A stretch of 64,000 nt of DNA. Source: an uncultured Caldilineaceae bacterium (lineage in GTDB: Bacteria; Chloroflexota; Anaerolineae; Caldilineales; Caldilineaceae). The DNA lies in the NCBI GenBank assembly GCA_964427845.1, contig CAYRVP010000003.1, positions 195 through 64,194 on the forward strand, in the 5' to 3' direction. Both the position numbers and the translations under genes were made by a program. Numbering within the stretch: position 1 is the stretch's first letter; every line of letters begins with the position of its first letter. Positions 36,592-49,410 of the stretch are shown piece after piece. The notes under the pieces were generated by a model, which was not told the origin of the DNA, made no database searches, and saw only the letters and a list, made by a program, of their open reading frames with translations.

Positions 36592-36639
36592 TGGGGGCGG
36601 GGGCGAGAGTGGATGGAGACTGGAGATTGCAGGTTGCGT

Positions 36640-36728
36640 ATTGAAGATTGACGATTGAGAATTGAAGACAGCGAACGCGCTCACACAGCGCCAGTCATCA
36701 ATCTTCAGTCATCAATCATCGCTGTCTT
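36640..36728. repeat. Heptad-repeat element (ATTGAAG ATTGACG ATTGAGA ATTGAAG ... CAGTCAT CAATCTT CAGTCAT CAATCAT)
   Basis: Two perfect helices: 36642..36651 with 36698..36707 (10 bp) and 36665..36673 with 36720..36728 (9 bp). They cross one another, so they are either pseudoknotted or mutually exclusive. Lies in the rimM-dprA intergenic region. Confidence 0.8.
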
Positions 36729-38054: not shown

Positions 38055-38127
38055 TTGGTCTTGCTCCTTACTGCAGAAATCGTTAGCGAAAGATTGACGT
38101 AAAATCGCAGATTCATGACTGACGATC

Positions 38128-38203
38128 GATAATTGAAGATTGATAATTGAAGATTGGCGATGCAGTGTGCACTTCAATCATCAATGATCAATCTTCAATA
38201 GTC
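38128..38203. repeat. Heptad-repeat hairpin (AATTGAAGATTGATAATTGAAGATTG / complement)
   Basis: An 11-bp perfect helix pairs 38133..38143 with 38188..38198. An inner 7-bp helix pairs 38146..38152 with 38172..38178. AT-rich. Lies in the ffh-rpsP intergenic region. Confidence 0.8.
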
Positions 38204-38246
38204 AATTACAGTTCGTCCGACTTTAGCACAAATCCCGCACATATCT

Positions 38247-43266: not shown

Positions 43267-45276
43267 CTAGCGGGCAATCCGAGGCAGGTAGGTGATGCTC
43301 GCCGGGCAGACGCTGATGGGCACCTGGCGCACGTTGCCGGGGGCGGGGACCGCAGACGGGTCGGCCACCAGCAGCAGGGTCATGTCCACTGTCTCTGTCA
43401 GTGCGGCCGTGCGGCTCACTGTGAGCGTAATCGTGTCCGCAACGATGCCGGTGCCGGTCGAGGCCGTCAGCCAATCAACCGGCGAAGGCACGATGGCGGC
43501 CGGGCTGAACTGCGCCGCCGCAACCGCAGCCGCCGTGGGCGAGGCCGCAATCGCCGCAGAGTAGCGTGTACCCGGAGAGCCTATCACGTTGACGGTCACC
43601 GTTTCACTTACACCCGCTGTGCCTGTGCAGACCCCGGTGAAGAAGACAATGCCAGGCGATGTGTACACCTGCGGCGGGGTCACAACAAAGGTCACGTTCA
43701 CCGGGTAGGGTTGGTTCTCAACCTGCGCCGTACTCGTGATCAGCAGACGCGTGGTATAGCTGCCCTGTGCTAAGCCGGCGGCGCTGAAGTTGAGTATGAT
43801 GTCGGCAAAGGCGTTGCCCGCGGGCACACTGCCGGTGGCAGGATCGATGGTCAGCCAGCCTGGGTTGCCGTCCGCCGCGATAGCAAAGGGAATCGAAGCA
43901 TCCGTTGTACTGTTGCGCAGGCGCAGAATCACTTGCGCCGTCAGCGCTACAGGGGCGCTGGCCTGTACGTTCTGTGTATCCGCCTCAAAGACCGGCCCGG
44001 CCGTAAAGCCCTTGGCATCCAGGTTGCCCGTTGCCAGGCTGCGCCGGTTGAAGTTTACATTGTAGTCAACGCGCGCGTCGGGGCCTCGTTCGGGCTCAGT
44101 GTAGATGCGGATCTTGTCAGCGCGCCCGATCGCGAACTCGTCGCGCGAGTCGTTATCCAGGTTGCCGCCCACAATCGCGCGCCAGTCATTGTCTTCCAGC
44201 CGCTCCGCCCACTCATGGGAGCCGTCGCCACCCTCATTCAGACTCAGGAGGCGCGGCCTGTTATCGGGCGTGCTTCGCAGCATGTAGAGTTCGTCATCCC
44301 CGCTGCCGTTTGTGTCGGCAAAAGCCAGCCTGCGAAACCCGGGATCATAGGCCTCGGCCAAATCATCCTCGAACGCGCCGCTCGACCAGTCCATGATGAA
44401 GATGGTTGTCGCCTGGCCCGGGTCGTCGGAGACACTGCGCGACCATGCCACCTCGTCGGCGTCTTTGTCATCCCAGTCGCCCATGGCGGCATCCTGGGCG
44501 CGTTTCTTGGAGTCGCCCGCGCTGAAGAGGCGCCGCCAGCCGTCGTCGGTGCGGTAGATTTCGATCTTGCCGCCTTCCTCGTCTACAAGAGCCAGTTCGT
44601 CGCCACCGCCCTCAATGACGTCGCCCACGGTCACTCGCGTCCAGCGCTCCTCGGAGTAGCGGCCGGCAATGTGCGGCGTCCACTGTGTGCCGTCGGGCGT
44701 AGCTGTGGCGCTCTTGTATATGTCAATCTGGAACTTCTTCCTGGCGTCACCACTCGGGTCGGCATTGATTTCCTGGCCAACCAGGATTTCGTCACCCGGA
44801 ACGCCTGGGTCAAAGTTGCCCGCCGCCACAAGCGTGGGCCTGGAGTTTACATCAAGGGTGAAGAGGGTGACCCACGGAATGCCGTTGATTTCCTGACCTG
44901 GCACCGTTTTGCCCGATGCAACGGGGTCGTAGATGATTACCTTGCCGCTGCCGGCATCGCCCTTGACGCCGATGATTTCCATGTCGCCGTCGTTATTGAC
45001 GTCTCCCAGGGCGAAATCCCTGAAGTTGCTCTCGGGGCTAATCCAGCGCACCTCGGGCGATGCGCCTCCAAACAAGGGGTCAATCACGCGGATGAAGCCG
45101 TCGGCGCCGTCAATGTAGACAATTTCATCGCTGCCTTCAGGTTCGCCTGCGACTGCAGGCGCCACACCCTGCTGCGCAAGGGCGGGCTGCGCCGCCTGGG
45201 GAATAACCATCGCGGCGATAACCGCGAGTGCCGCCCACAGGGCAATTGCCCTGTAGCTGCGTCTTGTGCTTTGCAT
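43267..45276 (-). CDS. Secreted FG-GAP/VCBS-repeat (integrin-alpha-like beta-propeller) protein with C-terminal Ig-like region
   Basis: Signal peptide MQSTRRSYRAIALWAALAVIAAMVIPQAAQPALA. Ca-binding-like repeats DVNNDGDMEIIG, DTNGSGDDELY, GNLDNDSRDEFAIG. Start set at ATG 45276. Confidence 0.75.
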   Translation of the reverse strand: MQSTRRSYRAIALWAALAVIAAMVIPQAAQPALAQQGVAPAVAGEPEGSDEIVYIDGADGFIRVIDPLFGGASPEVRWISPESNFRDFALGDVNNDGDMEIIGVKGDAGSGKVIIYDPVASGKTVPGQEINGIPWVTLFTLDVNSRPTLVAAGNFDPGVPGDEILVGQEINADPSGDARKKFQIDIYKSATATPDGTQWTPHIAGRYSEERWTRVTVGDVIEGGGDELALVDEEGGKIEIYRTDDGWRRLFSAGDSKKRAQDAAMGDWDDKDADEVAWSRSVSDDPGQATTIFIMDWSSGAFEDDLAEAYDPGFRRLAFADTNGSGDDELYMLRSTPDNRPRLLSLNEGGDGSHEWAERLEDNDWRAIVGGNLDNDSRDEFAIGRADKIRIYTEPERGPDARVDYNVNFNRRSLATGNLDAKGFTAGPVFEADTQNVQASAPVALTAQVILRLRNSTTDASIPFAIAADGNPGWLTIDPATGSVPAGNAFADIILNFSAAGLAQGSYTTRLLITSTAQVENQPYPVNVTFVVTPPQVYTSPGIVFFTGVCTGTAGVSETVTVNVIGSPGTRYSAAIAASPTAAAVAAAQFSPAAIVPSPVDWLTASTGTGIVADTITLTVSRTAALTETVDMTLLLVADPSAVPAPGNVRQVPISVCPASITYLPRIAR

Positions 45277-45631
45277 GTTCCAATACCTTTCACATTGTGC
45301 GCATGACCGCCGGCGGTGGCGGTCAGCATGAATCGACTCGAAATACGGAAATGAACAGGGCGTCACGTCCGGGCGGCAGCAGAATCCCCGGCTAACCGCG
45401 CACCATGAGGCCGACGGGCGTTGCCGAATCACGCAGATGGCGCTACACTGCGGAACGTAGTTCAGGAGCCACGCGCGCTTCGCCGCGAACAGTAGCCGCC
45501 TGGCGGCACTTGCTCGTCCGAGTATACACCATGCGCCGCGGCCCGGGAACACCGTCCGCCTACGATTACAGTGCGCTATGCACTGCACACAATTGCCGTA
45601 CACACCCATTCCACCCAGGGAGGTTTCTTCT

Positions 45632-46615
45632 ATGACACAACCCATTCGTGTTGCCGTCACCGGCGCCGCAGGCAATATTGGTTACGCGCTGCTCTTCCGC
45701 ATTGCCAATGGCGACCTCTTTGGCCCCGATCAGCCCGTCATTCTGCAAATGCTTGAAATCACGCCCGCCATGCAGGCGTTCAATGGTGTGGCCATGGAAC
45801 TCGATGACTGCGCCTTCCCGCTGCTCAAGGGTATGGTCCTGAGTGATGTCCCTGAGGTGGCCTTCAGCGGCGTCAACTGGGCGCTGCTCGTGGGCGCACG
45901 ACCCCGCTCGAAGGGGATGGAGCGCAAGGATCTGCTGGGCGCAAACGCAGCCATCTTCAGCGTTCAGGGCAAGGCGCTCAACACCAGCGCCGCCGCTGAC
46001 CTGCGCGTGCTCGTTGTCGGAAACCCTGCCAACACCAACGCGCTGATTGCCATGAAGAATGCGCCTGACGTTCCCGCGGAGCGCTTTACGGCGATGACTC
46101 GCCTCGACCATAACCGCGCCAAGGCGCAATTGGCCAGCAAGGCCGGTGTGCCGCTGACCGACGTCGCCAAGGTGACGATTTGGGGCAACCATAGCGCGAC
46201 GCAATACCCCGACGCCTACCATGCCGAGATTGGCGGCAAACCCGCCGCCGCGGTCATCAATGACGACGCCTGGATTCGCAGCAGCTTCATCCCCACCGTG
46301 CAGAAGCGCGGTGCGGCGATCATTGAGGCGCGCGGTCAGAGCAGCGCAGCCAGCGCGGCCAATGCCGCCATCAACCACGTGCAGACCTGGCACAAAGGCA
46401 CACCAGCCGGCGACTGGGTGAGCATGGGTATCCCCAGCACAGGCCAGTACGGCTCGCCCGAAGGCGTCATCTTCTCCTACCCAGTCACCGTCAGGAACGG
46501 CGTCATCTCGGTGGTTGATGGCCTGGCACTGAGCGGCTTCGACAAGGAAATGATCGCCGCCACCGGCGCTGAACTGCTCGAGGAGCGCGACGGCGTGGCC
46601 GAGATGCTGGGGTGA
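45632..46615 (+). CDS. mdh: Malate dehydrogenase (NAD-dependent)
   Basis: [49 protein letters not shown] lies before the ATG. Confidence 0.9.
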
Positions 46616-46890
46616 CGGCGGGATGACCGGTTGACTGGTAGACTGGGTGACTGGTTGACTTGTGGACTAGTTGACTGGTTGACTGGTGGACTGAGAAGAC
46701 TACGCGATAGCGGCGCCCAGTGCTCAGTGCATGGCGCCGCTATCGCGTAGTCTATTCAGTCCACCAGTCCACCAGTCCACCAGTCAACCAGTCAACCAGT
46801 CAACCAGTCCACCAGTCAACCAGTCCACCAGTCAACCAGTCCACCAGTCAACCAGTCAACTAGTCCACCAGCCCCCCAGTCATCCCGCCG
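46616..46890. repeat. 275-bp palindromic element with 8-nt microsatellite arms (GTTGACTG/GTGGACTG and CAGTCAAC/CAGTCCAC) around a 21-bp perfect stem
   Basis: Central stem 46697..46717 / 46733..46753 with a 15-nt loop. The right arm has about 14 octamer units and the left about 9. Termini CGGCGGGATGAC(C/T)GG abut the mdh TGA and the ppk TAA directly. Confidence 0.9.
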
Positions 46891-49170
<2,280 letters not shown>

Positions 49171-49410
49171 ATGTTGGTTTCCCATGTATCCAGGTCCCGG
49201 CAATGCGAGTAGCGCACGGCCCGCGCCAACACCAGCGCGTGCTGCCATTCTACCCGACCCCGAGTGTGTTGTCGAGCAGTTCGCCTAAATCGGGCTCGTA
49301 TTGGCCAGGGCGCATGCCTTCAGTTTGGCGGCGTGCGTTGCGGGGCTTACACTGCTTGCAAGGCGCAGCGCACGCCTGCATCGTCCATCCTAAGCAAGCA
49401 CAAGGTCCCC

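Follow-up and report, generated by a model that had tools for sequence, protein, structure and literature searches.

The spacer between the convergent mdh and ppk genes of an uncultured Caldilineaceae bacterium is filled, from one stop codon to the other, by a single palindrome whose arms are tandem 8-nt repeats. This element belongs to a dispersed octamer family that is restricted to part of one Caldilineaceae genus. The reading favoured here, which we regard as reasonably probable, is that the element is a gene-less and slippage-prone solo form of the hairpin cassettes known as intervening sequences (IVS), that it occupies a former terminator site, and that it is tolerated as a by-product. 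It resembles the STRR repeats of heterocystous cyanobacteria, which Mazel et al. are said to have described in 1990. The preliminary description of this DNA had recognised the palindrome and had linked it to heptad elements at other sites; it missed the genome-wide family, the plain terminator in relatives and the link with S23p/IVP cassettes.

Within the window (the whole stretch of DNA that was analysed, 64,000 nt), the spacer extends over 46616-46890 and is 275 bp long. The flanking genes and the parts of the element are as follows.

45578..46615, plus strand: mdh (malate/lactate dehydrogenase family; Pfam Ldh_1_N 2.9e-29, Ldh_1_C 1.1e-44), with its stop TGA at 46613-46615
46616..46627: left terminus CGGCGGGATGAC, locus-specific and adjoining the mdh stop, read from the sequence
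46624..46693: 5' arm of about 9 tandem octamers GTKGACTG (TRF period 8, 8.8 copies, 82% matches, score 91)
46697..46717: 5' strand of the central stem, 21 bp, perfect and GC-rich, read from the sequence
46718..46732: loop CAGTGCTCAGTGCAT, 15 nt, from the sequence and the folds
46733..46753: 3' strand of the central stem, 21 bp, exact complement of 46697-46717, read from the sequence
46757..46881: 3' arm of about 15 tandem octamers CAGTCMAC (TRF period 8, 15.6 copies, 88% matches, score 180)
46879..46890: right terminus GTCATCCCGCCG, reverse complement of the left terminus and adjoining the ppk stop, read from the sequence
46891..49248, minus strand: ppk (polyphosphate kinase 1; Pfam PP_kinase_N, PP_kinase, PP_kinase_C_1, PP_kinase_C), with its stop TAA as the complement of 46891-46893

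The stop-to-stop palindrome, the unequal arms of 8-nt repeats and the perfect 21-bp stem around a 15-nt loop had all been proposed in the preliminary description, and every one of its coordinates holds in the sequence, in TRF and in an inverted-repeat search. Upstream, the minus strand carries an 802-aa ORF (43267-45675) that has no Pfam match and overlaps the start of mdh over about 100 nt; the TTG given as its start has probably been called too far upstream.

The two arms preserve traces of a common history. In the 5' arm the inner units are perfect and the outer units degenerate, and the left terminus closes with a degenerate outermost unit, GGGATGAC. This rare unit is common to both arms, as is a GTGGACTA block followed by units of the T, T and G variants. 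The block adjoins the centre in the left arm and lies near the outer end of the right arm, where about 10 more units follow it, and this difference in position indicates that both arms have gained or lost internal units since a mirror-image state. The arms are complementary in 17 slipped registers, for example over 93 nt (89%, with a 15-nt gap) and, in an outer register, over 79 nt (86%); the inverted pair 46615-46693 / 46813-46891 spans both termini.

As a single strand, the spacer is predicted to fold at -186 kcal/mol (plus strand) and -220 kcal/mol (minus strand), with z-scores of -20 and -23, and none of 200 dinucleotide shuffles was as stable. Structure prediction had been suggested in the preliminary description, and both strands thus fold well beyond shuffled sequence. 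The centre is a 57-nt hairpin without an ORF, and a BLAST search with the stem centre against its own genome returned itself alone. Across the genome, the terminus motif is present in both orientations at this locus alone, and otherwise at two unrelated sites. In Rfam, the best match to the element reached 42.6 bits against a gathering threshold of 380. The possibility that the element is an assembly artefact was rejected, since G001, a 7-contig long-read genome of the same genus, contains elements of this type in fully resolved form.

The genome of origin (G000) comprises 4.45 Mb in 270 contigs, with 63.5% G+C. When an octamer locus is defined as a cluster with at least four GACTGG/CCAGTC cores, about 93 such loci are found, 45 of them two-armed; these copy counts are lower bounds, as the assemblies of G000 and of its sister species G002 (Caldilineaceae MAG ERP124720_co1_198) are fragmented exactly at octamer repeats. 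In G000, 42 of 540 contig ends (8%) lie inside octamer arrays. The preliminary description had proposed a genome-wide search and had held that a lack of other copies would argue against a dynamic element; the search shows that further copies are abundant. Only the octamers are common between loci, and both the centres and the outer flanks differ from one locus to the next, the centres ranging from 4-nt loops to nested hairpins. Two unit variants dominate in nearly equal measure (137 TT versus 141 TG junctions). At one locus (G000:C67:17423-17995), octamer arms of 11 and 7 units surround a series of smaller nested hairpins, about 420 nt in all, in which no gene could be recognised; this may be a decayed cassette.

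The octamers are also connected to heptad repeats. Three heptad palindromes in the window, at 2215-2355, 36624-36720 and 38109-38206, share the architecture of the mdh-ppk element; their units are ACTGATA/ATTGATG, ATTGAAG and TCAATCA. The element at 2215-2355 carries octamer-type units, GGTGGACTGGTTGAGTGG and their mirror CACCCAGTCAGCCAGT, outside its heptads, and several loci elsewhere in G000 run seamlessly from ATTGAAG heptads into octamers. Together with the exchange of heptad and octamer palindromes between species described below, this bears out the connection drawn in the preliminary description. A fixed layering with heptads outside octamers was considered as a rule and rejected: it is seen at six of seven genomic loci, but the element at 2215 has the order reversed.

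Octamer loci have a strict polarity. The G-rich array always lies 5' of the centre and the C-rich array 3' of it, the reverse order being absent (34:0 among two-armed loci). Since both orders would fold equally well, this polarity points to a real constraint. Palindromes in G000 overall lean the same way, with a G-rich 5' arm in 204 of 369 clusters and a C-rich one in 42 of 369. Candidate causes include avoidance of an exposed C-rich RNA segment that could load Rho, the presence of stop codons and an SD-like sequence on the entering side, and a directional mechanism of synthesis. As to genomic context, octamer loci are intergenic and start near the upstream stop codon, at a median distance of about 10 nt, both according to gene calls from our own crude codon-usage caller. 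Apparent cases of arrays inside genes were rejected as 5' ORF over-extensions by this caller. None of the three frames of (CAGTCMAC)n contains a stop codon, so octamer arrays give rise to spurious long ORFs.

Across genomes, the family has a narrow distribution. Counts of 3-unit pattern windows within the genus are 423 in G000, 76 in G002, 57 in G001, 20 in G005, and zero in both G003 and G004; a reversed-pattern control gave zero everywhere. Among 400 other Chloroflexota genomes, sampled evenly, one matches the pattern, with one single array. A four-unit scan of a contig collection found at least 73 loci in many phyla, and the matches outside the Caldilineaceae group are mostly single one-directional arrays, which fit a low background of octamer microsatellites. 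A pan-bacterial octamer element was rejected on these grounds and on the phylum base rate of 1/400. A MAG with the NCBI label 'Chloroflexia' (MFD04716.bin.1.82) first appeared to be a carrier in another class; it is G001 itself and belongs to the same genus.

Some arrays met in these scans are of separate interest. A Polyangiaceae MAG (Fred_18-Q3-R57-64_MAXAC.407; L006, L018, L009, L035, L042, L045) carries a (GGTTGACT)n array of variable number, which is a different element with a coincident unit, located within a larger conserved dispersed repeat with fixed flanks. In G001, locus L129 (G001:C7:470600-471500) holds arrays of CCAGTCAA and GGGAGTC three times at intervals of about 350 nt, within apparent coding linkers between tandem acyl-carrier-protein domains, where the units are translated in frame. 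A Metamycoplasmataceae MAG contig (L033) carries a compound microsatellite of more than 600 nt with the units TGATTGCT, TGACTGGT, TGACTGGC, TGACTGAT, TGAT and TGAC.

The arms turn over rapidly between closely related species. Across 12 orthologous locus pairs of G000 and G002, with flanks 90-97% identical, nearly all pairs differ in unit number or unit variant. Unit numbers differ, for example, as 3 versus 8 and as 1+3 versus 21+7 (C1:23502-23855), and at a locus with 5+3 versus 4+7 units a whole arm has switched from the G to the T variant. At two of the orthologous sites (C12:8059-8188 and C219:4104-4223), a heptad palindrome in G000 is matched by an octamer palindrome in G002. Within G000, copy number in one arm does not correlate with that in the other (Spearman 0.03, n=34 internal two-armed loci); 5 of these loci have arms of equal length, and in 17 the difference is at least 3 units. 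In the long-read genome G001, arms of 20-22 units face arms of 0-5 units, sometimes of the other variant, which gives one mismatch per unit. Arms that are uncorrelated, unequal and mismatched point to slippage that acts on each arm independently, and they speak against a defined stem kept by selection. The slippage-driven change in length put forward in the preliminary description is thus supported at the level of species. A metagenome scan with the unique mdh-ppk centre returned chance matches alone, inside unrelated coding DNA.

The synteny of mdh and ppk is kept across the family. G002 has an octamer element at the site, with outer units that differ from those of G000 on both arms, and both of its contigs end inside the element. 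In G003, G010, G011, G012 and G021 the site holds a GC hairpin, which in G003, G010, G011 and G021 is followed or flanked by T runs (in some cases A runs); judged by its sequence, the hairpin with T runs is an ordinary (bi)directional intrinsic terminator. The presence of a plain terminator in relatives implies that the octamer hairpin is a recent occupant of a terminator site. Other changes have also taken place here: another hairpin (CAACGGGAGGCC / GGCCTCCCGTTG) is present in G004 and G005, about 680 nt are inserted between the two genes in G004 (L077), and in G001 (L126) the insertion is about 2 kb long and contains two additional genes on the minus strand. The mdh-ppk gap is a hot spot for change across the genus.

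It could be argued that the element is itself a selected device, either a bidirectional terminator or a regulatory RNA hairpin, and that selection keeps its long stem for a role at the 3' ends of both genes. It lies at the same position as the relatives' terminator and has a GC-rich central stem, which is perfect over 21 bp; the family as a whole hugs upstream stop codons (on the crude gene calls given above), and STRR hairpins have been proposed to act as transcript stabilisers (PMC2670836). However, no T-tract follows the stem in either direction, a terminator scan of the spacer found no site, and some 70-125 nt of repeats extend the stem on each side, unlike in an intrinsic terminator with its U/A tract. 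Grossly unequal and uncorrelated arms, the regular mismatches introduced by T and G variants, and shifts in unit number between sister species also speak against a stem under selection. Furthermore, elements are not enriched between convergent genes: by the same crude gene calls, complete elements between genes number 32 co-directional, 6 divergent and 6 convergent, compared with 77%, 12% and 12% genome-wide. A selected terminator or regulatory hairpin is therefore quite improbable.

Even less probable is a role at the DNA level, in which TTGAC-like octamers would form an array of promoter -35 boxes or of sites for a nucleoid, partition or regulatory protein. Each T-variant unit does contain TTGAC, and heptamer repeats in Nostoc have been proposed to bind an unknown protein (bioRxiv 10.1101/2022.06.06.494920). 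Half of the units, however, are of the GTGGACTG variant and lack TTGAC, the 8-bp period is out of helical phase, and copy number is unconstrained. A promoter scan of the spacer found no promoter-like site, and the mdh-ppk copy sits at the 3' ends of two genes. Taken together, these points make a protein-binding array a very poor candidate.

A link to a known type of selfish element comes from S23p/IVP genes. G000 has three genes with PF05635 (23S_rRNA_IVP; NCBIfam TIGR02436, 'four helix bundle protein'), and two of the three, on contigs C26 and C70, are bracketed by octamer arms of the same polarity as the gene-less loci. The C26 arms are 30 nt long, 100% complementary and 509-525 nt apart, while those at C70 are 38 nt long, 89% complementary and 510 nt apart. 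The third gene has arms of a GGTTTAA type, and both PDDEXK_3/GxxExxY genes of G000 (C40 and C258) are accompanied by other inverted repeats, not octamers. In five congeners, all 11 IVP loci are bracketed by inverted tandem arrays of 7-8 nt, each with its own unit. G003 and G004 have IVP genes without octamers, which shows that the gene does not specify the unit. A PDB sequence search with the C26 IVP protein found no match at E <= 0.001, and no 23S rRNA (LSU) gene is assembled in G000.

This association extends beyond the genus. In a class-wide sample, PF05635 was found in 48 of 81 genomes, and 28 IVP loci with both flanks entered the arm statistics: 21 of the 28 score above the 95th percentile of a null built from shuffled pairs, 24 have a period of 7, and 25 have the G-rich arm on the 5' side. 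The C26 site (G000:C26:9258-9838, L162) allows a closer comparison, as it has orthologues in G002 (L114), G004 (L113) and G005 (L112). Across the four species, the flanks are 88-97% identical in DNA, the IVP proteins share 51-60% identity and the arms consist of unrelated 7-8-nt units. Conserved flanks combined with divergent proteins and arms show that one complete cassette has taken the place of another at a fixed site. Since octamer arms also enclose S23p/IVP genes, the gene-less hairpins are best read as a solo form of the IVS cassette. Alternatively, tandem arrays might arise at any hairpin, including those that flank IVP genes.

The last possibility is part of a more general alternative, in which the octamers are a purely local by-product that grew inside pre-existing palindromes site by site, with no mobility and no kinship to S23p/IVP cassettes. 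Several observations would sit well with it: centres and termini are locus-specific, the arms vary independently, and the presence of GGGATGAC and of GTGGACTA-T-T-G in both arms fits internal expansion of an older palindrome. Yet one octamer in two variants occupies about 93 loci of one lineage and is almost absent from 400 other genomes, which makes independent origins implausible; between conserved flanks, one whole element or cassette has given way to another; and the association with IVP genes is far above chance. Local growth without mobility thus has some standing as an explanation, and we judge it unlikely.

Mobilisation of another kind can also be considered. REP/BIME and REPIN-RAYT elements (PMC3116915, PMC3733652) are likewise palindromes that occur in large numbers between genes, frequently at gene 3' ends; they affect mRNA ends and fragment assemblies. 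A REP/REPIN that depends on a RAYT (Y1) transposase for its movement, or a MITE of the classical kind, would account for a dispersed intergenic palindrome, and G000 has two weak Y1_Tnp matches. These genes (C26:1401-1664 and C42:13600-13869) are nevertheless not near any octamer array. Moreover, octamer arms are microsatellites: the family lacks a GTAG/CGTC head, a conserved palindrome unit of 20-40 bp and an association with RAYT. It likewise has no conserved terminal inverted repeats or internal sequence of the kind expected of a MITE. Locus comparisons revealed neither a target-site duplication nor a pair of empty and filled sites. An octamer insertion in G002 (L086) appeared to have a 31-nt duplication on either side; the duplication borders an N-gap, probably arose in scaffolding and was discarded. 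A RAYT-driven or MITE origin is contradicted by these features and appears extremely improbable.

Under the preferred reading, that of a solo IVS-type hairpin, each copy consists of a (GTKGACTG)n array, a locus-specific centre and a complementary (CAGTCMAC)n array. Slipped-strand mispairing would lengthen and shorten the arms independently, and whole elements would be swapped at fixed intergenic sites. Mobility is here suggested by replacement at fixed sites rather than by insertion footprints, and the gene-less copies may derive from gene-carrying cassettes. Between mdh and ppk, an octamer element would have taken over the site of a bidirectional intrinsic terminator, so that both convergent mRNAs would carry a hairpin of about 100 bp at the 3' end. 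Such a hairpin could serve as a substrate for RNase III, block exonucleases or hinder read-through; both RNase III and Rho are encoded in G000. The element probably serves only as a 3'-end RNA hairpin of this kind, and we read it as a tolerated by-product and not as a tuned device.

A bolder proposal is that the repeat arms are left behind by an active process of defined polarity that is linked to S23p/IVP (and GxxExxY) cassettes, which would home to hairpin sites and have their arms written by templated addition. The targets would be pre-existing hairpins, such as terminators or the tips of rRNA helices, and G-rich units of 7-8 nt would be added 5'->3' towards the centre on both strands. Homing of this type would explain the invariant polarity (34:0 and 204:42) and the replacement of whole cassettes between conserved flanks. 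It would also explain why each species has a different 'current' unit, as well as the unexplained STRR repeats of cyanobacteria. We consider it speculative and rather unlikely.

Comparison with known systems clarifies where the solo-cassette reading places the octamer family. Both STRR hairpins (for example that of hupS-hupL, PMC2670836) and octamer elements consist of short tandem units at many intergenic sites, often as two inverted arrays that form a hairpin, with variable copy number. They differ in their unit, which has 7 nt in STRR and 8 nt (GTKGACTG) in the octamer family, although heptads here grade into octamers. The hosts also differ: STRR belong to heterocystous cyanobacteria and the octamers to a member of the Caldilineaceae (Chloroflexota), outside the original definition by host. 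In addition, a link to S23p/IVP genes is seen for octamer arms, and we found none described for STRR.

The IVS of Coxiella burnetii is regarded as selfish; its terminal stem is 28 bp long, and its loop contains an S23p ORF (PMC4990558). Strains differ in how many tandem GACAGAT heptamers this IVS carries in the region of the stem, and RNase III excises the IVS (PMC4990558). The mdh-ppk element resembles such a cassette in its long terminal inverted repeat, which forms a stem. In contrast, its arms are much longer arrays than those of the Coxiella IVS, and its loop has no PF05635/TIGR02436 ORF of the kind present at C26 and C70 in G000. It also sits between protein genes, whereas IVS are found in helix 25 or 45 of 23S rRNA.

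In practical terms, octamer arrays break short-read assemblies and yield long spurious ORFs, effects that are relevant to genome analysis in this lineage. Within this one genus, the number of three-unit windows per species is variously 0, 20, 57, 76 and 423 for a single octamer family. To our knowledge, repeats of the STRR type have had no explanation since 1990. The presence of octamer arms around S23p/IVP genes connects these hairpins between genes with the selfish IVS of 23S rRNA, and the combination of strict polarity, replacement at orthologous sites and a gene link makes the origin and mobility of such elements testable by comparative genomics and reporter assays.
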